A stretch of 32,000 nucleotides of DNA, taken from positions 8,460,001 through 8,492,000 of the forward strand of contig NZ_CP042911.1 in NCBI RefSeq assembly GCF_008065095.1, in the 5' to 3' direction. The notes beneath the pieces are model-generated. The model was not told the DNA's origin and searched no databases. It saw only the letters and a list, made by a program, of their open reading frames with translations. Every line of letters starts with the position of its first letter. Within the stretch, counting starts at the first letter, position 1. A program made the position numbers and the translations under genes. The stretch is from Gemmata obscuriglobus (GTDB taxonomy: Bacteria; Planctomycetota; Planctomycetia; Gemmatales; Gemmataceae). Of this stretch, positions 4,022 to 26,486 are shown piece after piece.

Positions 4022-5227
4022 TCACGCGGTGCATTTCACCATCTTGCGCGGCTGGACGGTGCTGAACGTGCTGCGCTTGGACACCTTGCTCTGGAAGATG
4101 ATGTCCTGATCGAACTCGAGTTGGCTGCCGGCGCCCATCGTGGTGACCGTCAGCGGCCAGTTCTCGATCTGCTCGAACGCGGCGCCGATGTCGCCGATGA
4201 ACCAGGTGGTGTCGGAGCCGGACACGGCCCGGAACAACTGGCTGCTCATCGCCTGGATCTGGCCGACGATATCCCCGGTCGGGTTGGGGATCTCCGCGGA
4301 GGCCGGGTTGCCCGAGGTCGCGAACCCGGGCGCGGTGCGGCGCACCATGCCCTTGAGGGCGAACGGCACGGTGAAGGCCAGCGCCGGGGGAACGCAGATG
4401 TGCTTCACGGTCACGTTCTGCGGCTCGCCGGTGGCGGGGTCGAGCATCTCCACAAGGCACTGCCACGCGGCCTGAACGTCGGTGTAATCGACGAGCGCGT
4501 TGGACGCGACGAGGTTATCCCAGGAGTGGAGCCCGCTGTTGTCGCCGTAGGTCGGCAACGGGCCGTAGTTGCGCCAGCGGTAGCGATACTGGTTCTTCGG
4601 GGTCTCCCCCGCGTCCACGATGCAGGTGATGGCGCGCTTCTCGTCGCTCACGCCCTGCCACTCGCCCAGCGAGTCGAGCTTGGTCATGAACTCGCCGGTC
4701 TGGTCGAAGAACACGGCTTCCTTCGTCGCCCGCGCGACCATCCCGCGCTTGCGGGTTTCGGGCGTGTCGGTCCAGTCCTCGCCGACGCCCACTTCCGGGT
4801 ACGGCTTCCCCTCCTCGACCACATCGCTTTCGTCGCCCACGTGGGTAACGCCCGGGATGCGCTCGAACTTGAACTTACTCGGACGGGTCGGAATGGCGTT
4901 CACGAACACGCGGGCAGGCACATCGTAAGCGGCGAGCACGCGCTCGTAGGCGAACTGCTGGGTGATGTTGAGGAATGCGGTGGTGCTGTTCGCGCCCGCG
5001 GACTCCTCGACTCGCGCGGCACGTAGCACCCCGTGCGCGCGCTCGGCGCAGTCGCCCAGGTTCTGGCGGCAGTGGCGGAAGTTGTTCCACCCGAAGCACT
5101 CGACGAACAGGTCGCCGAGGTCCAGGTCATCCGTGCGGATCGCGCCCCCGCGGAGCGAGGCCCGCAGCCCGGCCTCCGTTTCCGCCGGGTGGCGTTTGTA
5201 CGATTCAACCAACTTGGCGGTGTTCAT
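4022..5227 (-). CDS. Major capsid protein (putative HK97-fold), 401 aa
   Basis: The track ORF 4022..5578 is trimmed to the ATG at 5227 (MNTAKLVESYKRHPAETEAGLRASL...), because the upstream 117 codons are Arg/Pro-rich noise. It is the largest head-module ORF after the protease, with a sequence typical of a structural protein. Confidence 0.75.
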   Translation of the reverse strand: MNTAKLVESYKRHPAETEAGLRASLRGGAIRTDDLDLGDLFVECFGWNNFRHCRQNLGDCAERAHGVLRAARVEESAGANSTTAFLNITQQFAYERVLAAYDVPARVFVNAIPTRPSKFKFERIPGVTHVGDESDVVEEGKPYPEVGVGEDWTDTPETRKRGMVARATKEAVFFDQTGEFMTKLDSLGEWQGVSDEKRAITCIVDAGETPKNQYRYRWRNYGPLPTYGDNSGLHSWDNLVASNALVDYTDVQAAWQCLVEMLDPATGEPQNVTVKHICVPPALAFTVPFALKGMVRRTAPGFATSGNPASAEIPNPTGDIVGQIQAMSSQLFRAVSGSDTTWFIGDIGAAFEQIENWPLTVTTMGAGSQLEFDQDIIFQSKVSKRSTFSTVQPRKMVKCTA

Positions 5228-5277
5228 TGCGTCGGTCCCGGGTGGTCTGTGGTGGGGGCGTTGTTCGGGGTCGGGTG

Positions 5278-5991
5278 TTAGCGCGCCTGCCAGCAGCCGA
5301 TGTAATCGACCAGCGTGGTTTCGAGGCTCGTGCTGCCGTTCTTGCCGCCCACGAACAGGTTGACGTTCGCGATCGCGGTGAGCAGCAACTGGTGGCGGAT
5401 CGGCTGACCGGTCGCGGCCGAAATCATGAGCCGGCCGTCGATCGTGGGAACGCAGGTCGCGTAGTTGCCGAACGCGTCGAGGATCTCGATGCCGAGCTGC
5501 TGGTAACTCGCCCCGCCGGCCGCTTCGACGCTCTGGCTGACGGTCACGTCGGTCCCGTTGCGGGTGACGAACCGCCACACGTTTTCCCCGTCCACCTTGT
5601 AAATCGCGATCACCGCGCCACTGGCGCGCATCCCACCGCCGTTGTCGACGATCAGGTCCGCCGCCGGCGACGAGGCCAGGCCGAACGCGACGTTGGCCGC
5701 CGCAGTGTTCGCCTCGGTGAACTGGATCAGCGCTTCGGCGTACAGCGGTTTGTTGGCCGCCGGCTTGAACAAGGCGTTGGTGGTGGCGAGGTACGCTTCG
5801 TCGTTGTCGGCTACGCTTCCGTCGGAGTTGGTGAGCGTGGCGATCCCGCCGACGCCGGCGGCGGCGATCGACCCGGCGTCGGTGAGGACGGCTGTCCAGA
5901 GGTGCGGACTGATGTACCAGGGGAAGTCATCGTAGACCCCGTGCAGGTCCTTCGCTTCCTTCAGGACTTGGGCCATGCGAACGATGTTCAT
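5278..5991 (-). CDS. Putative capsid decoration / auxiliary head protein (237 aa; alternative TTG start at 6030)
   Basis: Beta-rich ORF (…DFPWYISPHLWTAVLTDAGSIAAAGVGGIATLTNSDGSVADNDEAYLATTNALFKPAANKPLYAEALIQFTEANTAAANVAFGLA…) between protease-scaffold and major capsid. This is the slot held by decoration protein D in lambda-like gene order. The function is positional. Confidence 0.6.
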   Translation of the reverse strand: MNIVRMAQVLKEAKDLHGVYDDFPWYISPHLWTAVLTDAGSIAAAGVGGIATLTNSDGSVADNDEAYLATTNALFKPAANKPLYAEALIQFTEANTAAANVAFGLASSPAADLIVDNGGGMRASGAVIAIYKVDGENVWRFVTRNGTDVTVSQSVEAAGGASYQQLGIEILDAFGNYATCVPTIDGRLMISAATGQPIRHQLLLTAIANVNLFVGGKNGSTSLETTLVDYIGCWQAR

Positions 5992-6050: not shown

Positions 6051-7223
6051 TCAGGCGATCCACGCCGCGAACTCTTTCGGGTCCGACGGGGGCGCCCCCT
6101 CGGTGGCCTTCTTCGGCGGCGTGATGGCCTCGGTGGTGATGCGCCCCCGGCCCGCGCTGCTCGGCCGCTCGGGAACGTCGGCCGGGGCACCACTCGCTTT
6201 CTTGAGCCGCTCGGCAACGGCTTTACGCCGCTCTTTTGGAGCCGCTGCGATCGTGTCCAGGTCGGCGCGATCGGGCCGGTAACCGATCGAATCACACACG
6301 TCCAGCGCCTCGCTGATCGCGTTGCTCGCGGGCCGCCGGCTCTCCGGCGTGGTGTCGTCGCCGTCGTCGCCGCCCCCGGTTTCCGGGTCGCCGTCCTTAT
6401 TCGGGGTGCCGTCCGTGTTCACCTTGGCGTGCGCGGCGAACATCTCTTTCAGCTTGCCGAGCACCTCTTTGGCTTTCGCCGGGTCGTCGAGACCCTGCTG
6501 AACCAGGCCCATGCACGCCTGATTAAAGGCCGCGGTGATGCCCTCGCTCGGGTCCGCATCCCCCGCAGGCTCGTCGACCGGTGAATCCATCAGGCCGCCC
6601 ATCGCCGCGTCGTCCTCGGCGACCAGTAGCAGCTTGCGCGCGGCCCGCTGGCGCGACTCGACGAGTCGCCCGCGGAGTCGATCGATTACGGCCCGGAGCG
6701 TCGTCTTCACGGCGGTTCCCTCGAATAAGCCTTTGGTGGTGGCAGGTTGAGCGACGAGATCGATCGACTCGACGGAGCGGATGGCCTCGACCATTTCGCG
6801 CCCGCCGGTGCCGGGCCGGGTGTCACAGAGCGCGACGTGGCTGAAGCCGAAGAGCGCGGGGTTGCGCTCGGCGGCCTCCATGACGCGCTCGTACATCGGA
6901 TGCGATTTGAGGAGGTTCAAGGTGCCGCGCGGGCGGCCGTCGGGTCCGGGGCGGACGTTGGTGAACCACCCGAGCCGGCGCTCAACAGTGCTCTCGCGGC
7001 TGTGGTCACAGTTGACGGGCCGGCCCTCGTACTTCGCGCAGTCGCGCTTCAGCACGGCAACGGGGTAATCGCGCCCGTTGGCGCTGCTGGTGCCGCAGAT
7101 GAGCACGCCGTCAATGGTGCCCGCGGTGCGGTTCGGCTTGGCGCCGCGGAGTGGCTCCGCGGTCCACTCGCGCACGAGTTGTTGGGTGGTGGCCGCTTCC
7201 GCGACGCGCTTTTTCTTCGCCAT
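6051..7223 (-). CDS. Prohead protease fused to a scaffold-like C-terminal region (390 aa)
   Basis: The N-terminal part has an S78-like prohead protease pattern (…YEGRPVNCDHSRE…RLGWFTNVRPGPDGRPRGTLNLL…SIDLVAQPATTKGLFEG). The C-terminal half is helical and charged (…AKEVLGKLKEMFAAHAKV…). It sits between portal and capsid genes. Confidence 0.7.
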   Translation of the reverse strand: MAKKKRVAEAATTQQLVREWTAEPLRGAKPNRTAGTIDGVLICGTSSANGRDYPVAVLKRDCAKYEGRPVNCDHSRESTVERRLGWFTNVRPGPDGRPRGTLNLLKSHPMYERVMEAAERNPALFGFSHVALCDTRPGTGGREMVEAIRSVESIDLVAQPATTKGLFEGTAVKTTLRAVIDRLRGRLVESRQRAARKLLLVAEDDAAMGGLMDSPVDEPAGDADPSEGITAAFNQACMGLVQQGLDDPAKAKEVLGKLKEMFAAHAKVNTDGTPNKDGDPETGGGDDGDDTTPESRRPASNAISEALDVCDSIGYRPDRADLDTIAAAPKERRKAVAERLKKASGAPADVPERPSSAGRGRITTEAITPPKKATEGAPPSDPKEFAAWIA

Positions 7224-7224
7224 G

Positions 7225-7250
7225 CCCCGGCCGATGTCACGCGGCCGGGG
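7225..7250 (-). repeat. Junction motif copy C embedded in a perfect 9-bp hairpin
   Basis: The sequence ccccggccg-atgtcacg-cggccgggg carries the 15-mer cccggccgatgtcac at 7226-7240. It ends 2 nt from the protease ATG (7221-7223) and contains the TGA of the 49-aa ORF. Confidence 0.8.
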
Positions 7251-7386
7251 TTGCGTTGCTCTGGAGGTGTTTCAGCAGCTCGGCCAGTTGCTCGGGATCG
7301 TCCGCCATCGCCTGAAGGCGCTCCGCGGTCGCGTCGTCGCCCTCGTCGCGGGCCTGAAGGATGGCGGCGGTGAGTACGTCGTTCAT
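7237..7386 (-). CDS. Small acidic hypothetical protein (49 aa; below the ORF-track cutoff)
   Basis: Hand translation gives MNDVLTAAILQARDEGDDATAERLQAMADDPEQLAELLKHLQSNATPAA. A GGAGA lies 12 nt upstream of the ATG, and the TGA stop lies inside the junction motif upstream of the protease gene. Confidence 0.4.
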   Translation of the reverse strand: MNDVLTAAILQARDEGDDATAERLQAMADDPEQLAELLKHLQSNATPAA

Positions 7387-7519
7387 CGGTGTTTCGGTCT
7401 CCTACGCGAGCCGCGCGTTCGCCTGCTCGTCGGGCGTTTGCGGGCTGTGCGGTGGTTTGTGCTGTTTGTTCAACTCAACTTCCCTCAGCGCGTCAGTGAT
7501 CCAGGCGGCCTTCTCAGCC

Positions 7520-10500
7520 TCACTCGCCGGGGCGTCGGGTGAGGTTGTCGAGCGTGCTTCGGATCGCTTTCTTTGCGTTTTCGAGCGTTTCGGCGCGGGC
7601 ACGGTCCTTCTCCTTTTTGGTCTTGGCTTTCTTCATCTGCACGGCGCCGGCGTCGAGCGCATCGGAGATCGCACCCTTGCGGTTCGCCAGCAGGTCGTAT
7701 GTGTTACTGTGCGACTCCAACTCCTGAGCGCGGCGCCTGTTCTCGTCGGTGTTGAGCGAGTTGCCCGCGTCGGCTACGCGACCGGCCCGGCGCGTGCTGG
7801 CGACGGCGCGGAAGTCGTTCAGCTCCTGGGCGAGGGCGCTGCGCACGTGTCCGGCCAGCTCGGCGCGCTCGACGAAGGTATCGTCCTCGCTCTCCTCGTC
7901 ACCCCACAGCGTGCTGTTGACGGTGGTGACGGCGGGCACGGCCGCCATCTGTCGGGCCAGTTCTTCGACGGTCCGGTTCGACAGGTCCTTGCCGCTCTCT
8001 TCTCGCTTGTCGAGCAGCTTGAACAGCTTCTCTTGCCGGTCCGGGTTGTCGAGGTGCTTTGCTACGGCCAGAGCCTTTTCCGGTTCCAGCGTGCCGCGTG
8101 CAACGCGATCAAACGCCTTGTCGTTGAGCTTGGTCATGGTGGCCGCATCCTCGGCCAGCTTGCCTTTCAGGCTCACCCCGTGCTTCTCCAAATCGGCCGG
8201 GCTGACCCCCATGTCCCGCATGAACTTCGCCGCATCAACGGCGGTGCCGCGGCCCTCCGCGATGTTGATCAACGCCCCTTTCGCGCGAGCTTCGCGCGCG
8301 TCCTTGGCTTGGAGGTAACGCACAGCCAGATCCGGGTGACCGGTGCGCGCCGCGAGCTCGTGCCGGTGGTGGCCGTTGACGATGTACGTTTCTCCGTCCG
8401 CCGGATCGCGCCACACGCTGACCACCCCCGCGAACTCGGGGTTGAACGATTTCACCCCTTCAAGTTCCTTCGTCACGCCGGCCGGGTTGTTGGTGTTCAG
8501 CTTGAACTGAAAACGTCCCGGGTCCACCTTCAGTTCGTGGGTCGGCACAGTCCGCACCTCGCCGGGCTTCGGCGGCGCGTTCGCCGGTGCGGCCGGAGCG
8601 GTCTGCGCGCCCTGCTGGCGGACGTGCTCGACCAGTCGGCTTGCGAGCGCGGCTTTGCTGCCGCCGATCTTCTGCCGGAACTCCAGGTTGAGCGCCCGCA
8701 GGTCTTCTTTCGACAACCCGGCCGCGTGGTCAGCCAGCGCTTTGACGTCTGCCGCGCTCAGGCTCGACGGATCGGCCAGCGCGCGCGAAACGACGTGATC
8801 CGCGCCGCGCTGCTGTGGCTGAGTGTTTTGAGCCACTCCCGCCCTCACCCAGCGCTTCACCTGATTGCCGTTGCGATCGGTGATGGTCATCAGCGTGAGA
8901 CCGGCCCGGGCCTCGGTGCTGAGCAGCGCGTACAGCGCCTCACTCACCCACTCGTGACCTTCCGCGGTGCGGCCGATGTGCTCGCTTGCGACCGATTCTT
9001 GATGACCGGTCTTCACGAGCCCCTTGATTGCGAGCTGCCGATCCGGCCCGCGCACCGGCTGACGCACCACTACCACCGCGTCACCGGTCCAGGCCGATGC
9101 GCCGTCAGCGGTGTGGTATAGCGCCCCGTCAAACTTCGTCGTCTGGCCGGCCTCCGGTCCCTCGAACGTGCCACCGAACCAGCGGATCACGTTCGCCAGA
9201 TGCTCGGCGACTTCGGGCTTGCCGTCTTTGATCGCGTCGCGGTGAACGGCTGCAAGGCGCTCGACGGTCGCGTGCCGCCGAGCTTCGGGCGAGAGCGGGA
9301 CCTGCTCGCCCGGCACGTTCCACGCGGCCGTTTCAAGGTAATCCCGCACGTCCTGTGTGGGCGCGGCCTCGGCAAGATGGTTCAGGTACTGTTTGTCAGC
9401 AGTGGGATGCTTTTTCAGCACCGCAGCGCTCGGTGCGCGGCTCGTGTTGCCGGTGTCCTTCTGGGGCGCCGGCGCGGGTACAACGTGGCCTTTCTTCAAA
9501 GTGAACCAGCGCCCGGAATCACCTTGCCAGGTCTCCCCCTCGCTCTTGGCCTCGGTGGCGATCTCGCTTTGCTCGGCCAGCGCGGACCGCAACCCTTGCT
9601 CGACGGTCGCGGCATCCGGTGTGGGCGCCTGCACCCCGAGCTGCTCGTGCAGGTGCGCGAGCAGCTCGGCGATAATCTCCGCCCACTCGTTCACGCCGTC
9701 GGTCTCGACGGCTTCCGCCCGACCGCGCACCTGACCCGCCGCCCACGCGCCGGCCTTCACGATCAGTTTCGACGCGATCGAAGCCACCAGATGCCCGGAG
9801 ATCCCCACGCCGATCGTGTCGGCGAGGTTGGCACTGACAAAGTCGGCGTTGCGCGGGTTCGCGGTGCCGCTCGATGTGTTGGGGTTGTACCCCAACTTCC
9901 CGAGATCGCTGGGCGTGTCGAAGATGTCCGCCAAGAGGCTACCGAGCGCCGCGGTCTTGGGGGAGTTCGCGACCTTGACCGCCCAGATGTACGTTTTCGC
10001 CGCGGCGGTCAGAGCGACGTCTTTCGCCTTCGCCACCACAGACGCCGCCGGCCGCTCCGCTTCCGGCAGCGCGGCAACGGCCTGGTCGATGCCGCCCGTG
10101 ATGTCGGCGCGGTCCTGGTCGGGCACCTGCTCGACGGTGCCATCTGCGCTGGGCTTCGTGCCCGCATCCGAGTTGCCCGCCTGGGGTTGGGCGACCTGCT
10201 TCCCGTCCACGTAATGCCGCTTCCGCCCCGCGGCGTCGGTGATGTCGCCGGTGAACTTCTCGCGCAGGATCTGCTCACCGAAGATGTCCGTCGGGTTTGG
10301 GCTGCTCCCATCCCCGCCGGCGCTGCCCGGCGGTGTCGAGGTCGGATCGGTGGGCGCGGGAGGTGCGCCCGGGGGAGGCGAGGCCGGAGGTAGTCCCCCG
10401 CCGCCCTGGTCTGGGAACTTGGCCTGCCACTCCGCGATGTCCTTTGCCACCTGATCGGGCTCGGCACCCGTCGATCGCATGAATTCGAGCGGGCTGGCGC

Positions 10501-11917
10501 ACTTCTGCTGGTACAGCGAAAGGAACGTCCGCGCCTTCTTCTCCTCGTCCGCGATCACCACCGGGCCGGCAGTGGCGACCGGTTTGACGCGCTTCGAGGT
10601 TCCCCGCGCTAACCGGCCCGAGCGCTCGCAGAACTCGAGTACGCGCGTCGCCACCCGGCACGCGAACGCCTTCACCCGTTCCTGCCGCCCCTGTGTCAGC
10701 CGCACGAACGGCGACCCCGTTACCAGCACGCTGGCGAAGCTCGCGTCCCCTTCGCCGCTGAAGTAGCTCGGGCACCCCCAGCGGAACCCGACGCCCTTCA
10801 ACACCAACCGCTCAACGGTCTCGAACCCGGCCGTACCGCTCGACACCGGCCCCGGTTTCACCTCGCGCCCGCCCTCGGTGCGCACGACGGTTCCCGCCTC
10901 GTAACCCGTCACACTGGTCGATGAGCCGGGGTTGCCCGCGGGCTTAACGCGGCTGTAGTCCTCGCCCATCCGAACCGAGTTGATGACCTGATCGAGAGTC
11001 GCGTTGGGGTACTGCTCCCACCACGCGATGGCTGCTTGCACCCGGGCCACGTGGGCCATGTTGTCGAGCAGCCCCAGCACCTTCCGCAACTGCTCGCCCA
11101 CCGGGAAGAAATCGGACAGCCCCCGCTTCACCGTGCGGTCCACGTTGGCCTTCATCCGCACGTACTCGGACGACGCCACCTGCCGCCCCCGTGACACGTT
11201 GGCCGGATCGCAGAGCCAGAGGCCTTCTTCGCGCTCGTCGTCGCCCTCGGCGGTGATCACTCCCCACCCGAACGGGTCCAGCGTGCTGTGACCGTCGGGG
11301 GTGCGGATCAACTCCGGCTCGATGTGACGCACATAGGGCAGCCCGTCCGATGTGTCGTCGCCCACAAAGAACCGCAGCGTCGTTTCACCCTCCACGATGA
11401 GCCGCCGCCGACATTCCTCCTCGCGATCCTCTTCACCTTGCCCCCACTCTGCGAACTCGCACCACTCCTCCCACAGCGCGAGGCACGCTTTCGCCACCGC
11501 TTCGGCCTGCGCGTCGCCCCGCCGGCGCGGCACGAACGCCAGTTGCATCGAGCCGACGAAGTTGGAGATGTGGTCGCGGAACCCGAGCGCGAGGTGATTG
11601 CGGATGCACAGGTCACGGGCCAGCGCCACATGCTGCCGCCACTCGTCTTCGTTCAGGTACGAGAGGGGCGCTTTGGTGCGGTCCTGGGTGCGCTGCGCCG
11701 GGCGGTTCACACGCCACGAGCCGTAGCCGGGGAAGCCATCGCCGGCGTCCAGCCAGTCTTGAGGCGAGAGTAGGTTGTCGAGTGACAGGAGGGTTTCTTC
11801 GAGCCGCCGCACCTTGGCCGCGTGCTCACGCTTCAACTGCGCGAGCGATGCCGACTCGACGGCCGGAGCGCCGGGGAAGTGATCGGATACGCTCAGCGTG
11901 ATGGCGGCAGGGTACAT
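7520..11917 (-). CDS. Giant portal-fusion (polyvalent-type) protein, 1465 aa: portal-slot N-terminus, low-complexity linkers, SAP-like motif, ParB/Srx-like domain, charged helical tail
   Basis: A single uninterrupted ORF with its ATG at 11917, in the portal position between the terL region and the protease. The C-terminal region has a ParB/sulfiredoxin-fold signature (…HELKVDPGRFQFKLN…FAGVVSVWRDPADGETYIVNGHHRHELAARTG…, about nt 8263-8563). This is preceded by LSKEDLRALNLEFRQKIGGSKAALASRLVEHV (about nt 8621-8716). P/G/A-rich linkers such as GGGGLPPASPPPGAPPAPTDPTSTPPGSAGGDGSSP separate the parts. Confidence 0.8.
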   Translation of the reverse strand: MYPAAITLSVSDHFPGAPAVESASLAQLKREHAAKVRRLEETLLSLDNLLSPQDWLDAGDGFPGYGSWRVNRPAQRTQDRTKAPLSYLNEDEWRQHVALARDLCIRNHLALGFRDHISNFVGSMQLAFVPRRRGDAQAEAVAKACLALWEEWCEFAEWGQGEEDREEECRRRLIVEGETTLRFFVGDDTSDGLPYVRHIEPELIRTPDGHSTLDPFGWGVITAEGDDEREEGLWLCDPANVSRGRQVASSEYVRMKANVDRTVKRGLSDFFPVGEQLRKVLGLLDNMAHVARVQAAIAWWEQYPNATLDQVINSVRMGEDYSRVKPAGNPGSSTSVTGYEAGTVVRTEGGREVKPGPVSSGTAGFETVERLVLKGVGFRWGCPSYFSGEGDASFASVLVTGSPFVRLTQGRQERVKAFACRVATRVLEFCERSGRLARGTSKRVKPVATAGPVVIADEEKKARTFLSLYQQKCASPLEFMRSTGAEPDQVAKDIAEWQAKFPDQGGGGLPPASPPPGAPPAPTDPTSTPPGSAGGDGSSPNPTDIFGEQILREKFTGDITDAAGRKRHYVDGKQVAQPQAGNSDAGTKPSADGTVEQVPDQDRADITGGIDQAVAALPEAERPAASVVAKAKDVALTAAAKTYIWAVKVANSPKTAALGSLLADIFDTPSDLGKLGYNPNTSSGTANPRNADFVSANLADTIGVGISGHLVASIASKLIVKAGAWAAGQVRGRAEAVETDGVNEWAEIIAELLAHLHEQLGVQAPTPDAATVEQGLRSALAEQSEIATEAKSEGETWQGDSGRWFTLKKGHVVPAPAPQKDTGNTSRAPSAAVLKKHPTADKQYLNHLAEAAPTQDVRDYLETAAWNVPGEQVPLSPEARRHATVERLAAVHRDAIKDGKPEVAEHLANVIRWFGGTFEGPEAGQTTKFDGALYHTADGASAWTGDAVVVVRQPVRGPDRQLAIKGLVKTGHQESVASEHIGRTAEGHEWVSEALYALLSTEARAGLTLMTITDRNGNQVKRWVRAGVAQNTQPQQRGADHVVSRALADPSSLSAADVKALADHAAGLSKEDLRALNLEFRQKIGGSKAALASRLVEHVRQQGAQTAPAAPANAPPKPGEVRTVPTHELKVDPGRFQFKLNTNNPAGVTKELEGVKSFNPEFAGVVSVWRDPADGETYIVNGHHRHELAARTGHPDLAVRYLQAKDAREARAKGALINIAEGRGTAVDAAKFMRDMGVSPADLEKHGVSLKGKLAEDAATMTKLNDKAFDRVARGTLEPEKALAVAKHLDNPDRQEKLFKLLDKREESGKDLSNRTVEELARQMAAVPAVTTVNSTLWGDEESEDDTFVERAELAGHVRSALAQELNDFRAVASTRRAGRVADAGNSLNTDENRRRAQELESHSNTYDLLANRKGAISDALDAGAVQMKKAKTKKEKDRARAETLENAKKAIRSTLDNLTRRPGE

Positions 11918-11933: not shown

Positions 11934-12653
11934 TCACGCCGGCAGCTCGAACGTGACGCCGGGCCAACGGCGCTGAAAGAGCAAGCGGTTCAAAAAGCAG
12001 TTCATTTTCCAGTACGTGTCGGGCGGATCGGCAACGTCGATGTCGTCGTCGCAAAAGTTCACCCACCGATCGGCAATCAGGAACGAATCAAGCGGGGGCG
12101 GGGCCGGGTTCACGATGTGCGTCACGGTGTCCATGCTCAATAGCGCCGTCAGGCGAACGCGCGCGACCGGGTGGCTCGCGCGGGCCTCGTCGCCGTAATT
12201 GAACCACGCGCCGGGCGAACAGACGACCTCGTCGACAAAGCCGCGGCGCCAAACCACCTCGTCGGGCCACCGCCACACCTCGCGCGGCCACAGGTCTCGT
12301 TCGCGCGCGAACAGCGCGGGCAGATCGCCCGACACGTCACCACGGGCAACCGCCGCGATCCGGCACTGCACGCGAACGAACTCCGCCCGCCGCTCGTCCC
12401 CGTGCTGCGCGAGCCAGTCGGCGTACACGAGCCGCGGCGTGTCCTCGTCGGGCTGCGCGATGATGGCGGCGAGCAGGGCCGTTTCGTCGGAGGTGACCGG
12501 CGCGGGCACGAGGCCCGTGCCGTTGCAGACGTGGCATTCGAGGGAGAACGGTAGGGTTGGCGTGTGCAACCGCCCGCCCTCACATGGGCGCCCCATGTGC
12601 GGCCCGACCGCCGTGCAGGCGACCATGAGCCCGCTGCCCGGTGTACCGGTCAC
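11934..12653 (-). CDS. TIGR02996-like (Gemmata repeat-companion domain) protein with N-terminal CxxCxGxG knuckle, 239 aa
   Basis: …ECHVCNGTGLVPAPVTSDETALLAAIIAQPDEDTPRLVYADWLAQHGDERRAEFVRVQCRIA…WRRGFVDEVVCSPGAWF… matches the TIGR02996 signature from memory. The GTG start overlaps the terL stop (GTGA). Confidence 0.75.
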   Translation of the reverse strand: MTGTPGSGLMVACTAVGPHMGRPCEGGRLHTPTLPFSLECHVCNGTGLVPAPVTSDETALLAAIIAQPDEDTPRLVYADWLAQHGDERRAEFVRVQCRIAAVARGDVSGDLPALFARERDLWPREVWRWPDEVVWRRGFVDEVVCSPGAWFNYGDEARASHPVARVRLTALLSMDTVTHIVNPAPPPLDSFLIADRWVNFCDDDIDVADPPDTYWKMNCFLNRLLFQRRWPGVTFELPA

Positions 12654-14266
12654 GTTCCGCCTCCCACCAGCTCCTGGAGCCGAATCACTGCCGTCGCCAG
12701 CGCGTCGGGGCCGTCGTCGTGGTCGCCGTTGAACAGGTCGCGCAACTGGTCGACCAGCATCCGGCCCCCGACGGTGTTCCGAACGCGCAACTGGCCGCGG
12801 CGCAGGTAATCGTTGAGCACGCGGATGCGCGTCTCCTTCTTGATGACCTGTGTGCGTTCGGTGTAGGTGAGCATGACCGGGCGGCCAGCCTCGCGCCGCT
12901 CACGCAGGATCTGCTCCGCGGTCGGCCGAAACAAGCCCATCGTGTTATTCACCTCGGCGACCAGTTCCAGCGGCCCCCAGCTCGCGGCGAGGTCGATGGC
13001 GCGCTCCACCCAGCCCGGCTCGCGGCGCATCTCGCAGTCCACGTACAGCAGCCCGAACCGGGACAACCCGAGTTGCACGTGAGCCTGAAAGTCGCTCTTG
13101 TCCGAGTTGCCCTTCGACGGGTCGAGGGACTGGAGTTTCAGAACGATGTCCGTGGGCCACTGCTCGAACCAAAGGTCCGTGCGGTCGAACAGCTCCGCGG
13201 GCCACTCGGCCCCCTCGATCGTGCCCGGAACGCCTTGGTACTCCGTCTCGAAGCCGGACGCCCCGATCGTCGCGCGCAGCAACATCAGCTCGACCAGCGG
13301 CCAGCGCTGCGGCCAGTACACGCGCGCCCCCCGGTCCATCGCCGCCTTGCGTGCGGCGTAGTACGCCCGGGCGGTCTCTTCGCGGTTGGGGTCGGCGAGG
13401 TTCGATGCAAGGCGCGCGAACTCCGACCAGCTTTCCATGTCATCGGGCCAGCGGTGAACGGCTCGGAACGTCCGGCCGGTCCACCCGGGCAGTTGCCCGA
13501 TGCGCACCGCGACGGCCTCACGATGGAGCGCGCTGCCGACCGCCAAGAAGTTCGTTCGCTCGTCGCCCGCGGGCATCACCTCACGCGTCGCCCACTGCCA
13601 CGCGCGGGCGCGCTTCACGGGGCTGGTCACGTCCTCGTTGTTCTGAATGTCGTCGAAAATGATGAGGCTCGGTCGGTTGCTCCGGTTGCGGCGCCCGCGC
13701 ACCTTCTTGCCGGAGCCGAGGGCCTCGATCAGCGACCCGTTGCGGAGCCTCAAACGCGACTCCTTCCACTCCGGGCCGGTGCCCGTTGCTGTGGGGTAAG
13801 CCGCGCGAAGCAGGTCGTTCTCTTCCAGTTCCTTGCGGATGTGGCCCAACAACAGATCGGCTTGGTCGCTCGAATCGGACAGGATGAGCGTATAGGGCTC
13901 CCACTTCTCCAGGGCCGCGCGGAGCGGATAGGCTAGCGTGTTCCAGGTGCTCTTCGCCCCCCCACGGGGCGCAATGTAGCTCAACCGCGAACCGCGCCGC
14001 GTGTGCAGGCCGTCCAGGTCGCGCTCGAAATCGGCATGGAAATCGGCCGGGGGGAACCGACCGAAGTATTCCGGCAGAAACTGGCGGTTCCACGCACCGG
14101 GGCTAAGTGTCCCGGCCTCCCACTGCCGCAGCGCGGCGACGAGGTCCGCGACGGCGTCAGGTGGAAGGGCCGACAATTGCTCGTCGAGCTGCTGCGAGGA
14201 CAGCGCGCTTATCGGCGTCGGTGAGCTTCGACGTGTCGATTTTGGGCCGGTCCTGGTGCGGGCCAT
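12650..14266 (-). CDS. terL: Terminase large subunit
   Basis: Walker A (YIAPRGGAKST) and Walker B (PSLIIFDD) motifs, plus a C-terminal nuclease-like region (…LDPSKGNSDKSDFQAHV…GDHDDGPDAL). It follows terS. The start is uncertain: the ATG at 14266 overlaps terS by about 110 nt, and a TTG at 14176 is an alternative. Confidence 0.85.
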   Translation of the reverse strand: MARTRTGPKSTRRSSPTPISALSSQQLDEQLSALPPDAVADLVAALRQWEAGTLSPGAWNRQFLPEYFGRFPPADFHADFERDLDGLHTRRGSRLSYIAPRGGAKSTWNTLAYPLRAALEKWEPYTLILSDSSDQADLLLGHIRKELEENDLLRAAYPTATGTGPEWKESRLRLRNGSLIEALGSGKKVRGRRNRSNRPSLIIFDDIQNNEDVTSPVKRARAWQWATREVMPAGDERTNFLAVGSALHREAVAVRIGQLPGWTGRTFRAVHRWPDDMESWSEFARLASNLADPNREETARAYYAARKAAMDRGARVYWPQRWPLVELMLLRATIGASGFETEYQGVPGTIEGAEWPAELFDRTDLWFEQWPTDIVLKLQSLDPSKGNSDKSDFQAHVQLGLSRFGLLYVDCEMRREPGWVERAIDLAASWGPLELVAEVNNTMGLFRPTAEQILRERREAGRPVMLTYTERTQVIKKETRIRVLNDYLRRGQLRVRNTVGGRMLVDQLRDLFNGDHDDGPDALATAVIRLQELVGGGT

Positions 14267-14786
14267 CTTCTTTGAGCAACCCAAAGTGCTTCGAGAGGAT
14301 TTCGAGCGCCCGCAACTTGTCCCAGCGCTTCACCTTCACCGTCCGGACGATGTTGACCTTCAAGCGCGCCCGCTTCAACTCGCCACCGTGGGCCTGCGGC
14401 TCGCGGCTTTCTTCCGGCTCTGAGTCGTCGGCCGCGAACTCCTCCTCGGTCTCGACCGCCGCAACGGTGGCGTCCGTTGCCTCGTCCCATTCGGTCGGCG
14501 GCTTGAAGGTGCCGTCGTCGCGGTACAGCGACTTGTTGCGCTGGAACGCGATCAGGCCAAGCTCTCGGATGACGCGCTGAGGGGTGATGCCGTCCGCCGC
14601 GGCCGCGGCATCGAACAGTTCGGCCACCCTCTTCGAGATGTCATCATTTGCTAGCAAACGTGGGGCATTCGCACGCGCCGCCGCACGGCTCGCTTTCGGG
14701 TACGCGTCCTGATAAGCATCGGTCGCGTTGAACTTCCGCGCGATGTACCGGACACAAAACAACTCTTGCTGTGCTGTGAGGGCCAT
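14157..14786 (-). CDS. terS: Terminase small subunit (Terminase_2/P27-like)
   Basis: The N-terminus MALTAQQELFCVRYIARKFNATDAYQDAYPKASRAAARANAPRLLANDDISKRVAEL fits the conserved terS HTH pattern (Q..F...Y....N...A...AGY). It has an ATG start with a GGAG SD. Confidence 0.85.
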   Translation of the reverse strand: MALTAQQELFCVRYIARKFNATDAYQDAYPKASRAAARANAPRLLANDDISKRVAELFDAAAAADGITPQRVIRELGLIAFQRNKSLYRDDGTFKPPTEWDEATDATVAAVETEEEFAADDSEPEESREPQAHGGELKRARLKVNIVRTVKVKRWDKLRALEILSKHFGLLKEDGPHQDRPKIDTSKLTDADKRAVLAAARRAIVGPST

Positions 14787-16059: not shown

Positions 16060-18801
16060 CTACGGTGGAACGTCCTGATCGGGACTCCACCCGGACGAGT
16101 CCCGGCGCTTCCGGTCGTACTCACCAAGCAAGATGTCCGGCCGGCCCCCCTCGCCCCAGGACACGCCGGCGTACACCTGCTCGCGGTCCCGGCCGACCCG
16201 CTTCCGGACTTTGGTGACGCCCTTGAACACCTTCCGCAGCTCGACGCCGAAGTTCGCGTCGTTGAGCGAGAGGAACTTGCGGGCGCGGCACCACTCCACG
16301 TAAGCGGCGTACACCTCAGTGGTCCGAACCGTCTTGTCCGCGTCCGCGAGCTGGAGATGATCCTCCAGAAACTGCCGATGCGGGTTGCAGATCTCCCGGT
16401 GCTCAGCCTTCGCCGTCTCGCCAACCTTGGACGACGAAAACCCGCCCTGCTGGTACAGCCGGTGCAGCCCCGCGAGCGCCCAATTCAGCACGCCGGGCAG
16501 CTCGCCGGACGCGATCCACCAACCGGGGTCGCTCATCCCGTGAACCTTCTCGCCGTCGGTGATCACAGTCGTGAACGGCACCAACTGGTAACGCCGCCAA
16601 ACGCCCTCCGACCGGTCCGCGAACCGCGGCAGGGTGTTCGTCGAGAGGAGCAGCCGGGCCGTGGGCCGGGCCGAAATCGGGGCCTTGTTCTTCCGGTCGA
16701 AGCTCATCAGGTCCGCGCCGACGAAGCTCTTCAACTTCGCCTCCGCGACCTTGTCCAGTTCCCCGACCTCGGCCACCGCATTGACCAGCTTCCCGAGCGT
16801 GACGCCGAGCGCGAACCGCTCGCCGAACTCCTCCAGCGGCACCGACGCGTAGTTGTGGTCACCGATCAGCGCCCGAAGGACCGCCAGGAACGTGCTCTTC
16901 CCGTTCGACCCCTCGCCGGTCAAAACGAAGAACTGCTGGAATCGGGTGTCGAACCGGAGCAGGTAACCGGCGATCTCCTGCAGAATCAGTTGCCGCTCGC
17001 GGTCCCCGTCAGTGACGCGCTCAAGGAACGAATCGAACCGCGGGCACTTCGCGGAAGCGTCAAAGGCAACCGGGATCGCGGCCGGCGTGAAGTACAGCGG
17101 GGTGGCGGGCACGAGTGTCGGGGCGCCGCTGGCGAGCAGCTCGGCCACGTCGAGCAGCCCGTTGGCGCACGCGATGTACTCGCGCTGCTCGGCGGCCGGA
17201 CGCACGCGCGGAATCCGGTTCGGCCGGGGCGGATCGGCCGACAGCATCGCCGGCCAAGTGGTGTCAGCTTCGAGGTGAACCATCGACGCCGCGGCCGTCA
17301 CCGCGTTGCTGATCTTCCGCGTGTCGAGCTTCGGCACCGCGGGCCGGGCGCCCTGCCGGCCGCCGTGCTCCCAAGCCGCGACCGCGACCAGGTGCGCCGC
17401 CTCGCACTCGGCCCGCAGGATGTTCCAGCCGCGAAGATCGAAGTCGTTGTCCGCAACGGTGACGTACTTGCCCGCCCGCCATTCCCACCACTCGCCGCGG
17501 TGGTAAATGGCGGTCGGCAAGTCGCCCTGTCGGGGCACGAGCAGCCGCCCGAGCCGGTGCGGGTCCATGAACTCCTCGTGAACCGGTTCCTCGTCGCCCT
17601 CGCCGGCGGCCGCCCCGCCCTCCGGAGGGGCGGGGGAATCCGGTCCACCGACGACAGGGGCGGCCGGGCGCACGCGGCGCGGGGCATACCCCTCGTCGCG
17701 GAGCCGCTCGGCCAGGCGGGCGAAGTCGCCCCCAAACTCCAAATGGCAGCGGAGCCAGCTCGGGTTGAGCCCCTGGTTAAACGGGATGCCGGCCGCGTCG
17801 GTGAAGCCGTAAAAGAGCGGCACACCCGACACGACCATGATGTTGCCGCTCTTGTCGCCACCCTTGCCCGGACGGCGAAAGTCCCAGCGGGCACCCCGGC
17901 GCCCCGCATCGACCCAACCGTTTCTCTCCAGCATGTCCGCAACCGACCGCTCGGTAGCAGCCGCGTTGAACGCCGCAAACACGTCCGGACCCGAAGCACC
18001 TCCCGCGGCAACGGCGGTGCGGGTCACGCGGGCGGCACGAGGCGCCGGGGCGGGCCGGAGTTGCGGCGCCTGCGGGACTTCGAGCGCGTCCGGCGGGATC
18101 AGGTCCGTCGGGTCGCCGGTGAGCGAAAGCACGTGATCGACCGCCCGGGCACCGTCGAGCCAGTTCGAGCCGTCATACACCCGCGGCCAGAAATTGCGCT
18201 TGTGGTGCCGGCCCACCAGCCGGAGCCAGTTCCCGTACTTGGTGCTCTCGTTGATCTCGGTTTGCTTGGGGAACGTCTCCGGCATCTTGCCGAAGCCGAA
18301 CTGCGCGTAGTCGCGGACGAGCCAGCGCCCGAACGCGAACAGCGAGCTCCCGGCCACCGGATCGGCGAACAGGGCGAGCAGGTGATACCCGCCGGAGCCG
18401 TTGGATTCCGCGAGCACCGGGCGGAACCGCAACTCGACGAGTTGCGCGTAAACGGACAGAGCGAACCGCTCGTTCGCGGCCGGGTCGCACGGCTGACCGG
18501 GGTGCGCGTCGATGTCCACCCCGACCCATTTGCCGGTTCCGTCCGGCCCGATCGCGTGCAGCCCCATCACGTGCGGGGTGTCGATCGCACCGAAGTGACG
18601 GACGAGCCGGGCGTGATCAACGAACCCGGCCTGCGCCCCTCGGCTCGGCCGCGTCGTCCGCTTCACCTCGCCGTCGTCGCCGATGTAACACCCGCCGCAC
18701 CGGTCCGTGCGGTTCACGATGCGGAGCATCGCCCACCGGGCCAGGTCGTCGGCCCGCTGGCGCCACGCGGTCGCGTCGCTGCTTACCGTTTCGGTCACCA
18801 C
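16060..18801 (-). CDS. Bifunctional prim-pol / P4-D5-type primase-helicase (913 aa)
   Basis: The N-terminus is prim-pol-like (…HVMGLHAIGPDGTGKWVGVDIDAH…GSGGYHLLALF). The C-terminal part matches the P4-family primase NTPase region (…FFVLTGEGSNGKSTFLAVLRALIG…LVNAVAEVGE…FVGADLMSFDRKNKAPISARPTARLLLSTNTLPRF…WRRYQLVPF). The start is GTG. Confidence 0.85.
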   Translation of the reverse strand: MVTETVSSDATAWRQRADDLARWAMLRIVNRTDRCGGCYIGDDGEVKRTTRPSRGAQAGFVDHARLVRHFGAIDTPHVMGLHAIGPDGTGKWVGVDIDAHPGQPCDPAANERFALSVYAQLVELRFRPVLAESNGSGGYHLLALFADPVAGSSLFAFGRWLVRDYAQFGFGKMPETFPKQTEINESTKYGNWLRLVGRHHKRNFWPRVYDGSNWLDGARAVDHVLSLTGDPTDLIPPDALEVPQAPQLRPAPAPRAARVTRTAVAAGGASGPDVFAAFNAAATERSVADMLERNGWVDAGRRGARWDFRRPGKGGDKSGNIMVVSGVPLFYGFTDAAGIPFNQGLNPSWLRCHLEFGGDFARLAERLRDEGYAPRRVRPAAPVVGGPDSPAPPEGGAAAGEGDEEPVHEEFMDPHRLGRLLVPRQGDLPTAIYHRGEWWEWRAGKYVTVADNDFDLRGWNILRAECEAAHLVAVAAWEHGGRQGARPAVPKLDTRKISNAVTAAASMVHLEADTTWPAMLSADPPRPNRIPRVRPAAEQREYIACANGLLDVAELLASGAPTLVPATPLYFTPAAIPVAFDASAKCPRFDSFLERVTDGDRERQLILQEIAGYLLRFDTRFQQFFVLTGEGSNGKSTFLAVLRALIGDHNYASVPLEEFGERFALGVTLGKLVNAVAEVGELDKVAEAKLKSFVGADLMSFDRKNKAPISARPTARLLLSTNTLPRFADRSEGVWRRYQLVPFTTVITDGEKVHGMSDPGWWIASGELPGVLNWALAGLHRLYQQGGFSSSKVGETAKAEHREICNPHRQFLEDHLQLADADKTVRTTEVYAAYVEWCRARKFLSLNDANFGVELRKVFKGVTKVRKRVGRDREQVYAGVSWGEGGRPDILLGEYDRKRRDSSGWSPDQDVPP

Positions 18802-18849
18802 CGGCCGCCCTCGCCCACGTGCCCCACGTCCGGCCCACCGCCGCCCCCG

Positions 18850-19620
18850 TCACGCGTCGCCCGCGAGGTATCCCGGCACCTCCGCCAGCCCCAGCGCGTC
18901 CGCCACGCGCTGCCGACCGATCGCCACGTACGGCGCCTCGCACTCGATCGCCAGGCACCGCCGCCCTTCGAGCGCGGCCGCAACGGCAGACGTGAACGAG
19001 CCGGCGAACGGGTCCAGCACAAGCCCGCTCGCCGGCGCGATCTTCACCAACTCGCGCAGCAACTCGGTCGGCTTACCGGTCAAGTGGTGCTTATCGGCCT
19101 GCTTCACGCCGACCGAGTAGAAGCCCGGTAGCGGTGCGCCTTCGAGCGGCCGCGGCCCTTTCGTGCCCCACACCAGATACTCACACGATGACGTGAACCG
19201 CCCCTGTGTCGGCCTCGCGCCCGGCTTGTGCCACGGAACGATGCCGCGGTAGACCCACCCACCCGCCTGGATGGCGTCCACGGTCACGGGAAGCTGGCGC
19301 CAGTCGGCGAACACGCCGCAAATGGTTCCGGGCCGGGCCGCCCGTAAGCACTGAGCGAGCCACAGCGCCGACCAGTACCCGTAGGCGCGCTGGTCGCGGG
19401 TGTCGCCGGCAAACGCCGGGTACTCGCGCCTGGTGCCGGTCTGCTGGTACTTCTTGCGGACGCCGCTGATCTTGTCCCCGCGGGTGAACCCGCCGCTCGA
19501 ATACGGCGGGTCCGCGAGGACCAAATCGAACGCCTCGCTCGGCAGGTCCACCAGTACCGCCAGCGACTCGCCCTGAACGATCCGCACCGGTTCGGCCGCC
19601 GTTGGCAACTCGATCTTCAT
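18850..19620 (-). CDS. DNA methyltransferase, beta-class N6A/N4C (orphan)
   Basis: The DPPY catalytic motif comes early (DLVLADPPYSSGG) and the SAM-binding motif late (LVLDPFAGSFTSAVAA). No restriction endonuclease partner was recognised in the window. Confidence 0.85.
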   Translation of the reverse strand: MKIELPTAAEPVRIVQGESLAVLVDLPSEAFDLVLADPPYSSGGFTRGDKISGVRKKYQQTGTRREYPAFAGDTRDQRAYGYWSALWLAQCLRAARPGTICGVFADWRQLPVTVDAIQAGGWVYRGIVPWHKPGARPTQGRFTSSCEYLVWGTKGPRPLEGAPLPGFYSVGVKQADKHHLTGKPTELLRELVKIAPASGLVLDPFAGSFTSAVAAALEGRRCLAIECEAPYVAIGRQRVADALGLAEVPGYLAGDA

Positions 19621-25103: not shown

Positions 25104-26306
25104 TCAGCCTATCTTGCGCGCGATTGCTGAAGCGAGCTCTAGGTTGCGTTCCGCGTACACCTGAGTGACGTCGGCTTTTGAGTGGCCGAGCAGTACCTGG
25201 GCGGCCTCCAACCCGAAGATTCTCCGGATCTCGGTGCCGTAAGTGTGCCGCAGTTGGTTCGGGTGCCAGTGTGGCACACCGGCCTTTATGCACGCCGCAC
25301 GCACCGACTTTCCGTAGGTGTGTCGGGTGTAGATCTCCGGCGTCTTGTGCTTCAGCTCCGCAGGCTTCTTCTTCCGGCTCTCTTGCGACGGCTGCACCTT
25401 CGTTTTGCGTTTCGCGCGCAGGGCAGCATACCGCTCAGCTTTGGCCCGCACGGGACTGAATACCACGTCGTCCGGTTGCAGTTTGTCGAGGATCGGCCCG
25501 AGGATTTCGGCGGCTTCCGGCCCAAAGAGGATTGTTCTGGTGGCCCCCTTGTAATCGGTCTTATGCCGCGGCGGCCGGTACACCCACGGCAGCGCAGTGC
25601 GATCGACCTGGCCGGCGCGCATCCGTTGCACGTCCTGGGGCCGGCACCCACTCAACCGCTGCACGAGAGCCATCGCGCGCACCGTCGGATTGAGGAACGG
25701 CAGGGCCGCCCCGACGTGCAAATCGAGAACAGGGCCGACGGGCTCGGACTCGCGTACTTTGGTGCGCCCGAGTTCAAGGCCAGCGACTGTGGTGAGCGCG
25801 GTGTACGTCGTGATCGGCACAAGTTCCTCAGATGCGGCCCACTTGAACACACGCCGCACGCGGTTCGCGCGTGCGTTGATAGTGCCGCGACACAGATCCA
25901 ATTCCGGACTCATCCACTTTTTGCGCACCGCCTTCAGCGCGAGCGGGCCGAACTCGACGGCTGGCTTGTGGCCGTACAGCTCGAGAACCTCCGCCAGCGA
26001 CTCCTTCAGCCACCGGATTTCGCTGGTCGGGTTCCCGTCGCGGTCACGGTAGTGCTCTTTAGCGTGCCCCCAGAATGCAAGCACCATTTCGGCTACCGTC
26101 AGCGAGCGGGGAGACTTGGTCGTGGGAGCGGCTGCCACGGCCGGGGCCTGCGCCGCCAGTTCCGCCAGGACGCGTTCGTATTCCTTTTTCGATTCCGCGG
26201 AGCCGTATGGTCCGAGGTAAACGTCTCGCCCGGCAACGCGAACACGGGCCTGTCCTGACGGTTTGTGGAGGAGGTACTTCGGAACGGGGTTTCGTGGGCG
26301 CGCCAT
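25104..26306 (-). CDS. int: Tyrosine recombinase / phage integrase (400 aa)
   Basis: C-terminal catalytic motifs …HPNQLRHTYGTEIRR…LLGHSKADVTQVYAE (H-x-x-R, then GH…Y). The N-terminus has an arm-binding-like pattern (KPSGQARVRVAGRDVYLGPYGS). It is adjacent to the tRNA 3' end. Confidence 0.9.
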   Translation of the reverse strand: MARPRNPVPKYLLHKPSGQARVRVAGRDVYLGPYGSAESKKEYERVLAELAAQAPAVAAAPTTKSPRSLTVAEMVLAFWGHAKEHYRDRDGNPTSEIRWLKESLAEVLELYGHKPAVEFGPLALKAVRKKWMSPELDLCRGTINARANRVRRVFKWAASEELVPITTYTALTTVAGLELGRTKVRESEPVGPVLDLHVGAALPFLNPTVRAMALVQRLSGCRPQDVQRMRAGQVDRTALPWVYRPPRHKTDYKGATRTILFGPEAAEILGPILDKLQPDDVVFSPVRAKAERYAALRAKRKTKVQPSQESRKKKPAELKHKTPEIYTRHTYGKSVRAACIKAGVPHWHPNQLRHTYGTEIRRIFGLEAAQVLLGHSKADVTQVYAERNLELASAIARKIG

Positions 26307-26343
26307 TCGTGACCTCGGGTTTCGTGGTAGCTTACCACGAAAC
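26287..26343. promoter_or_regulatory. Three copies of GTTTCGTGG / CCACGAAAC around the integrase start (candidate arm-type or operator sites)
   Basis: GGGTTTCGTGG occurs at 26287-26297 (inside int codons 4-7) and at 26317-26327, 30 bp apart. The inverted copy CCACGAAAC is at 26335-26343. The last two form an 11-bp palindrome, gtttcgtggta-gct-taccacgaaac. Confidence 0.55.
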
Positions 26344-26414
26344 TAGACAAATCACGACGGTACTACAAGTTCAGAAGTGACGGAAATCGACAGGGAAACC
26401 AAGCATTCGGCGAA

Positions 26415-26486
26415 TAGGTCGGGTGGGAATCGAACCCACGGTTGCGCGCTCATCAGACGCGTGCCTTACCACTTGGCTACCGACCT
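26415..26486 (-). tRNA. tRNA; hand fold gives anticodon GAU (Ile), isotype uncertain
   Basis: Cloverleaf on the minus strand: AGGTCGG-TA-GCCAAGTGGTAAGGC-A-CGCGT-CTGATGA-GCGCG-CAACC-GTGGG-TTCGATT-CCCAC-CCGACCT-A. It has a 7-bp acceptor stem, a canonical T-arm, and no encoded CCA. G at position 37 and a Gln-type D-arm are atypical for Ile. Confidence 0.85.

Follow-up and report, generated by a model that had tools for sequence, protein, structure and literature searches.

The window analysed here is a stretch of 32,000 nucleotides (nt) from Gemmata obscuriglobus (contig NZ_CP042911.1, positions 8,460,001 to 8,492,000 of the forward strand), and the gene under study lies on its minus strand at 7520..11917, within an integrated tailed prophage. 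The 1465-amino acid (aa) product is a portal protein with a C-terminal extension of ~950 residues made of shuffled polyvalent modules, which we term M1, M2, M3, M4 (with a SAP-like end) and the ParB-like unit. The gene and its parts are listed below in window coordinates, in the order in which they are encoded.

7520..11917, minus strand: whole gene, 1465-aa portal-cargo fusion (ATG to TGA, 1465 codons; open reading frame (ORF) and translation)
10406..11917, minus strand: portal domain, aa 1-504, lambda family (PF05136; phrog_21 'portal protein')
10286..10405, minus strand: P/G-rich linker, aa 505-544 (composition), holding the conserved motif PPGSAGGDGSSPN
10295-10333, minus strand: motif PPGSAGGDGSSPN, aa 529-541, PPGSAGGDG(S/T)SPN
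9548..10285, minus strand: M1, aa 545-790, hairpin-like motif FTGDITDAAGRKRHYVDGKQV followed by an all-helical domain with FDTPxDxxKLGYNP
9443..9547, minus strand: M2, aa 791-825, ~30-aa motif GETWQGDSGRWFTLKKGHVVP
8993..9442, minus strand: M3, aa 826-975
8618..8992, minus strand: M4, aa 976-1100, ending in a SAP-like helix-extended-helix
8621-8716, minus strand: SAP-like helix-extended-helix, aa 1068-1099
8558..8617, minus strand: P/A-rich linker, aa 1101-1120 (25% P, 30% A)
8315..8557, minus strand: ParB/sulfiredoxin (Srx)-like N-domain, aa 1121-1201, with DPxRFQ(F/Y)K and NGHHR motifs
7940..8299, minus strand: helical domain, aa 1207-1326, aligned with the Box III-to-helix-turn-helix (HTH) DNA-binding region of ParB
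7538..7933, minus strand: C-terminal beta-hairpin and long-helix domain, aa 1329-1460 (secondary structure from the model)

A portal protein with a modular extension

The initial annotation of this DNA had read the 4.4-kb ORF as continuous, and all 1465 codons are indeed found in a single frame. The GC content at third codon positions (GC3) is 0.77-0.91 in each 100-codon block, compared with 0.83-0.86 in the neighbouring genes, and the two ORFs antisense to the gene (7361-9121, plus strand, 586 aa; 9200-10393, plus strand, 397 aa) exhibit an inverted codon-position GC pattern and are shadows of the high-GC coding strand in this 67% GC DNA. The uniform coding-type GC3 and the reversed antisense pattern together indicate a single genuine reading frame, as opposed to an ORF kept open by chance in high-GC DNA. 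The protein is 100% identical to the G. obscuriglobus entries AWM41755.1, QEG32291.1, VTS11647.1 and WP_010038311.1, which represent three independent genome submissions and are named either 'Phage portal protein, lambda family' or 'ParB/Sulfiredoxin domain-containing protein'. The same sequence in three submissions makes a merged-frameshift artefact very unlikely. More generally, the possibility that we are dealing with an artefact of assembly (a frameshift), or with a decayed, functionless gene formed when sequences in a dead prophage were recently joined by accident, draws some support from the lack of a close database relative with exactly the same five-module order, only the portal part having ~60-70% identical homologs; it is extremely improbable given the identical submissions and even GC3, and because every module has conserved homologs elsewhere, analogous fusions occur in other phyla and the surrounding head module is intact. 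No near-identical DNA was found among GenBank phages.

The N-terminal third, which the initial annotation had taken for a portal, matches PF05136 over aa 90-383 when aa 1-560 are searched by themselves (E 6.1e-9; score 35.9 bits, cutoff 32.9), covering model positions 20-323 of 354, and many homologs carry the same precomputed match; on sequence grounds this domain is a lambda-family portal. The sub-pieces have to be scanned alone, as the full-length Pfam scan of the 1465-aa protein returned no matches, PF05136 included. The ORF is also the only portal candidate and is encoded between the terminase and capsid genes. Both the family-level PF05136 match and this gene position are shared with lambda gpB, a protein of ~533 aa that carries no cargo, and the fusion protein is 2.7 times as long as gpB. 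The portal-family profile, polluted by the variable extensions, found no portal in the Protein Data Bank (PDB), and sequence searches of the three thirds of the protein against PDB chains gave nothing meaningful. A full-length score against phrog_21 (E 0, 2331 bits; 1362 positions) was rejected as independent evidence for the portal family, since the prophage protein or a near-identical one is most likely in the PHROG seed.

A first search for homologs gave 33 relatives, the majority of them Gemmataceae or metagenomic sequences. In 31 of these, similarity to the query is confined to the first 510-600 residues (28-69% identity), and the other two (P0032 and P0034) match the ParB-like module only; the portal part is ~60-70% identical to the N-terminal 510-570 aa of Gemmataceae proteins of 900-1000 aa with precomputed PF05136 matches. 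All 33 relatives are 810-2560 aa long with differing cargo, which makes C-terminal extension characteristic of the portal clade as a whole. Among the extensions, Pfam recognizes an ADP-ribosyltransferase (P0029), a TGL transglutaminase or transglutaminase-like domain (P0028), a 2H phosphoesterase with weak similarity to Acb1 (P0019), and SAP (P0026); the cargo enzymes make sense only on host targets. Further 2H domains with weak similarity to Acb1, which is anti-CBASS, were observed in L044:3044-12355, L021:3449-10903 and P0166. Within portal-fused or giant polyvalent proteins, the similarity suggests virion-delivered degradation of cyclic-nucleotide signals.

The linkers rich in P, G and A that had been noted from the sequence are found by composition at aa 505-544 and aa 1101-1120, with a wider block at aa 516-555 containing 22% P and 15% G. 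The motif at aa 529-541, set in a linker that otherwise looks low in complexity, is near-invariant in 27 of the 31 portal homologs and is kept whichever unrelated cargo comes after it; it may be a hinge or a candidate processing site. A comparison of this linker with the neighbouring head proteins yielded nothing convincing as a common cleavage-type motif.

The region between the linkers is composed of four independently mobile modules, M1-M4, each of which can be found by itself, in a different order, or terminating a portal protein. These were resolved by an exhaustive search with aa 561-1100 (148 matches), which performed far better than a word-based search on the middle region (6 matches). 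M1 is found alone or C-terminal on portal proteins of both the lambda type and the Mu type (for example P0101), and its AlphaFold2 model is all helical (predicted local distance difference test score, pLDDT, 75) with one moderately hydrophobic helix. M2 stands as an independent unit straight after the portal in P0004, P0008, P0010, P0015 and others, and M4 does so in P0003, P0029, P0111, P0114, P0142 and others. Query residues 815-970, corresponding to M3, are matched independently in many proteins of 120-2500 aa; Pfam and PDB-sequence searches with M3 were without match. Global MAFFT alignments of the middle region, whether of whole proteins or of excised segments, misplaced the M3 and M4 homologs, and for this reason only M1 was modelled. 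The SAP-like helix-extended-helix, placed by the initial annotation at aa 1068-1099, holds by transitivity: query residues 1045-1121 align to P0026 1000-1075, and Pfam places a SAP match at P0026 1020-1051. SAP matches are also seen among homologs of the C-terminal ParB-like module. A short hairpin-like motif, [TD]xxGxxxx[WY]Vx[GD]xxV, is present in three copies in the extension (aa 555-575, 794-814 and 1010-1028; ~10193-10255, 9476-9538 and 8834-8890), and motifs of this kind also head the cargo of many relatives and the stand-alone M1 proteins.

The ParB-like unit and its distribution

The C-terminal unit (aa 1121-1460) was modelled by AlphaFold2 with a pLDDT of 92.1 and a predicted template modelling score (pTM) of 0.81. 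The 30 best PDB structure matches found by Foldseek are all ParB, Noc, KorB, Spo0J or PadC, the top matches being ParB (6t1f, 7bnr and 6sdk), Noc (7nfu), KorB (8qa9) and Spo0J (1vz0). The best of these, 6t1f_D (E 6.6e-6), aligns over ~207 columns that correspond to the ParB N-domain and HTH domain, while sulfiredoxin (6ky4) and the serine-kinase/SbnI members of the superfamily appear further down the list. ParB, Noc and KorB are CTP-dependent DNA clamps, and the likeness to them lies in the predicted fold of the N-domain and of the helical domain that comes next.

A search with aa 1101-1465 gave 60 homologs with identities of up to 59%, mostly stand-alone proteins of 430-620 aa. In an alignment of 46 sequences the N-G-H-x-R motif (N81-G82-H83-x-R85 of the 365-aa piece), D-P, and the N...G of NIAEGRG are invariant, and DPxRFQxK is nearly so; in the query the motifs quoted by the initial annotation are present where it had placed them, KVDPGRFQFK at aa 1130-1139 and YIVNGHHRHELAARTG at aa 1178-1193. 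The register is shared with ParB, DPxR being positioned as Box I, NGHHR as Box II (GERR), and N-IAEGRG as Box III (ENLQR). The unit differs from ParB in that Box II reads GHHR and not GERR, in showing no significant sequence similarity, and in its virion-protein context. The conserved NGHxR, DPxR and N-IAEGRG positions would form a pocket, which suggests nucleotide-gated DNA binding or nicking. The beta-hairpin and long-helix domain is conserved across the 46-member family and might contribute to dimerisation.

Profile methods gave a different picture. Pfam returned no family for aa 1101-1465 even at E<=1, and across all 46 family members it found no ParBc and a single HTH_ParB match at E 0.043. 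The family profile found no ParB in the PDB, only spurious coiled-coil matches. An hhalign comparison with a single Bacillus subtilis Spo0J sequence was not significant (E 0.094), its register placing NGHHR against GERR, NIAEGRG against ENLQRED, and the following helices against the HTH. The initial annotation had named ParB/Srx homology in profile searches as one measure of its own proposal; by that measure no homology is detected, whereas by predicted structure, with a pLDDT of 92 and ParB-type proteins alone at the top of the list, the ParB/Srx reading is correct at the level of fold. The model further resembles an entire protein of the ParB type, not an isolated Srx-like nuclease domain. 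Neither ParA nor parS was seen among the scanned ORFs (terminase, capsid, primase, sigma-like, integrase and amidohydrolase), in which no search was aimed at either.

We found the ParB-like module at 64 loci in a scan of species-representative genomes, the arrangements being read from ORF and hidden Markov model analysis together with Pfam. The loci span at least six phyla (Planctomycetota, Acidobacteriota, Gemmatimonadota, Cyanobacteria, Proteobacteria, Bacteroidota and others). Five other genomes encode the module as a fusion with a Mu-type portal (PF06074), as follows.

L010: 1562 aa
L011: 1588 aa, Fimbriiglobus
L032: 854 aa
L046: 856 aa
L070: 1212 aa

Since the module is joined to Mu-type portals as well as to the lambda-family portal studied here, the fusion arose with two portal families. 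The last of the five, L070:5318-8953, lies in the complete genome of Pirellulaceae bacterium SH449 and combines a Mu-type portal and the ParB-like module with a weak Zeta-toxin kinase match. Because a complete genome is listed under a strain name, SH449 may offer a more tractable system.

The initial annotation had asked whether portal and ParB parts are found as split genes in related prophages, and such versions exist. At L003 the Portal_Mu protein, the ParB-like module and an M1 protein are encoded by consecutive genes, and at L007 a 763-aa protein that contains the ParB-like N-domain of the module plus M1 begins at the Portal_Mu stop codon. In other arrangements the module is a stand-alone gene, or lies inside ORFs of 1500-3570 aa together with ART-PolyVal, PBECR5, SNF2/ResIII, 2H, RelA/SpoT or LPD38. 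In Prochlorococcus phage P-SCSP1 it lies within a 2563-aa protein whose gene is preceded by gp11, gp12 and another three genes, the position of the T7 gp16 internal virion protein, and in Ruegeria phage 45A6 it lies within a giant protein of at least 3900 aa that meets the locus edge. In a library of viral structures, the unit matched best (E 5e-29 to 1e-17) to segments of 'large polyvalent protein associated domain' proteins, with ordinary phage ParB proteins ranking next; viral entries named 'large polyvalent protein' contain the 365-aa unit in its entirety. The connection to polyvalent proteins drawn by the initial annotation is strong, in view of the company that the module keeps in giant proteins.

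Polyvalent proteins were defined by Iyer, Burroughs, Anand, de Souza and Aravind in 2017 (PMC5512222) as proteins of phages and conjugative elements that carry 2 to 15 unrelated domains on one polypeptide, encoded in a phage virion module or in a conjugation setting, with domains shared and shuffled among relatives. The fusion protein has the portal, M1-M4/SAP and the three-part ParB-like unit joined by linkers on one chain, in the virion module of a terminase-portal phage; its ParB-like module recurs with domains of the polyvalent network, and M1-M4 are shuffled. Passages of that paper describe ParB-superfamily domains as a hub of the network, head-packaged ParB-containing proteins such as P1 DdrB, and effector domains (PBECR, 2H and InPase) fused to portal domains; portal- or MuF-fused effectors such as BcepF1 gp124 form a further likeness. 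The portal-fused cargo in these passages is not ParB-like. Models for ART-PolyVal, PBECR5 and LPD38, all families from PMC5512222, were in our library and fire on the domains that neighbour the module. P1 DdrB, of the Dar system of head-internal proteins, differs in not being fused to a portal, as it is a giant protein of its own that has a metallopeptidase at its C-terminus; the unit gave no Pfam match of the ParB type and no tblastn match to P1, the DdrB sequence itself not having been compared directly.

Our literature search found no paper on a portal-ParB fusion, and fusions to portals or virion proteins go unmentioned in a 2025 survey of the ParB-CTPase fold. With effector-portal fusions already described in the passages of PMC5512222 cited above, the novelty is smaller than the initial annotation had implied: the principle is already known, and what is new is the combination of a portal with a full ParB-like unit, together with a clade of ParB proteins not covered by current models.

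Position and fate of the cargo

Twelve subunits form the portal ring, and in all known portals the C-terminus (the crown, or the barrel in P22) faces the capsid interior. The cargo would accordingly be positioned inside the head, above the channel. The initial annotation had placed it at the DNA exit channel, which is not borne out, as a C-terminus that points into the capsid is not at the outer exit. We favour, with a probability of about 0.55, a capsid-internal cargo that is loaded at 12 copies per virion through the portal and is then released and delivered with the genome. The covalent fusion would replace the non-covalent docking of the MuF/gp7 type, so that each procapsid would receive 12 copies; the computed mass of the protein is ~158 kDa, of which the part beyond aa 515 contributes ~101 kDa, giving an estimated ~1.2 MDa of cargo, comparable to the T7 internal core. 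We take the cargo to be, most probably, a set of DNA-associated proteins that accompany the genome and act early. Its SAP-like and ParB-like parts would bind phage DNA, with the conserved pocket providing nucleotide-gated binding or nicking; proteolysis at or near the conserved linker would release it, and the released cargo would enter the host with the DNA. Delivery into the host, like the end protection and anti-defence roles raised by the initial annotation, is a proposal.

The cargo enzymes of the portal relatives, together with the homologs in gp16-type slots, argue that cargo of this kind is released and injected. MuF proteins, including SPP1 gp7 and the MuF polymorphic toxins, offer another comparison, since they too associate variable C-terminal cargo with the portal, and the relatives with split genes place the cargo gene directly downstream of the portal, in the classical muf position; Jamet et al. 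2017 (PMC5576092) described MuF toxins whose genes lie directly after those of portals. The difference lies in the covalent attachment, which implies 12 copies as opposed to the 1-2 reported for gp7, and Pfam identifies no MuF domain in the fusion protein, nor is one present in the precomputed Pfam matches of the stand-alone homologs P0036 and P0110. The proteins of the T7 gp16 type are similar through the homologous module in the P-SCSP1 protein, with the giant protein of Ruegeria phage 45A6 alongside it, and through the estimated cargo mass per virion; here the portal itself is the carrier, within a lambda-like head module, and no homology to gp16 was found.

The predicted DNA-binding character of the terminal unit also fits another arrangement, in which the extension is never released and twelve SAP and ParB-like units stay attached at the portal crown, inside the head, where the packaged genome itself would be their target. 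They might hold a DNA end by anchoring or clamping it, order the first layers of the spool, or gate or retain the DNA until ejection, in the manner of SPP1 gp7 or of the portal barrel of P22. The terminal unit is laid out like a complete ParB, with N-domain, HTH-like domain and helical tail, an arrangement that forms DNA clamps in ParB, Noc and KorB; it is preceded by the SAP-like DNA-binding motif, the long flexible linkers would allow it to reach DNA around the channel, and the module is repeatedly found with portals, either fused or as the next gene. Against this, relatives have cytoplasm-acting enzymes at the same position (ADP-ribosyltransferase, 2H and transglutaminase-like), and the module is present in giant polyvalent proteins and in the podovirus protein of the gp16 slot, which by analogy with T7 is ejected. 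We regard permanent tethering as credible but the less probable outcome. A more specific proposal, which we consider distinctly unlikely, is that the unmodelled clade of complete ParB-like proteins is a dedicated portal partner, whether joined to the portal or encoded beside it, of which up to twelve copies would form a ring of DNA clamps, gated by nucleotide, at the inner portal mouth. Such a ring would hold, escort or protect the genome end in packaging, storage and injection, and would represent a structural or mechanical use of the ParB switch in the virion, distinct from both partition and the classical injected effectors.

The cargo could also act in the producing cell, where unassembled or excess fusion protein late in infection would, for example, nick or silence host or rival DNA, with the portal serving merely as a convenient vehicle for late expression. 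Late-gene expression would be shared automatically with the portal in this case, but the presence of the modules on two unrelated portal families, in genes that follow the portal and in internal-virion-protein slots would be left unexplained, and we judge a role confined to the producing cell to be quite improbable.

Several observations weigh against the capsid-internal, delivered cargo that we favour. The ParB-like unit, unlike the enzymes of the relatives, could equally act while tethered inside the head. No sequence profile ties this unit to ParB, and a working nucleotide pocket is proposed from conserved positions; the portal assignment, for its part, draws on sequence evidence only. The M1 model has no fold match in the PDB (best E 0.9), and none of M1-M4 has a Pfam match or is covered by an LPD model. 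Finally, the adjacent gene could not be confirmed as a protease by sequence comparison.

To our knowledge, portal-fused cargo has never been studied experimentally, and what is known of the way in which phages load defined numbers of internal proteins, and of the roles of these proteins in the first seconds of infection, comes largely from T4, T7, P1, P22 and N4. A covalent fusion fixes both the copy number, at 12, and the location, so that the loading, processing and ejection of cargo could be studied in it as a tractable model. With 64 loci plus marine cyanophages, the ParB-like module is widely distributed; it is invisible to current domain models, so that its annotation would relabel many 'hypothetical' virion proteins.

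The surrounding prophage

The gene order on the minus strand is terS, terL, a 239-aa ORF, the portal fusion, a 49-aa ORF, a 390-aa ORF and the capsid gene. These and the other assigned features of the window are as follows.

14157-14786, minus strand: terS (PF03592)
12650..14284, minus strand: terL, terminase large subunit (phrog_38, E 8e-77)
11934-12653, minus strand: 239-aa ORF with a Gemmata-specific TIGR02996 'rpt_mate_G_obs' domain (E 5e-24)
7237-7386, minus strand: 49-aa ORF, acidic and helical, located within the 296 nt that separate the 390-aa gene from the portal fusion
6051..7223, minus strand: 390-aa gene in the protease/scaffold slot (only match phrog_29592, of unknown function)
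4022..5578, minus strand: major capsid protein (PF25209, E 9e-9)
16060-18801: D5-type primase-helicase
25104-26306, minus strand: tyrosine integrase, abutting tRNA-Ile(GAT)
26415-26486: tRNA-Ile(GAT), adjoining the integrase, with an amidohydrolase gene and tRNA-Arg beyond

The initial annotation had described the fusion gene as filling the portal slot between terL with its accessory gene and a protease. Its position after terL and the 239-aa ORF and before the capsid gene stands, but the protease label given to the 390-aa gene has no family match behind it, Pfam, NCBIfam and PDB-sequence searches all having returned nothing for that gene. The longest capsid ORF opens at a GTG, and its first ~115 residues are arginine-rich and look non-coding; the true start is probably the ATG preceding MNTAKLVESYKR. 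A 924-aa ORF without family matches (16357-19131, plus strand) lies opposite the primase gene. The start of the 239-aa ORF overlaps the terL stop by 4 nt, and its TIGR02996 domain is a host-type paralogous domain that is positioned here within the head module, between terL and the portal. The integrase and tRNA-Ile site (25104-26486) is the probable attachment site and prophage end.

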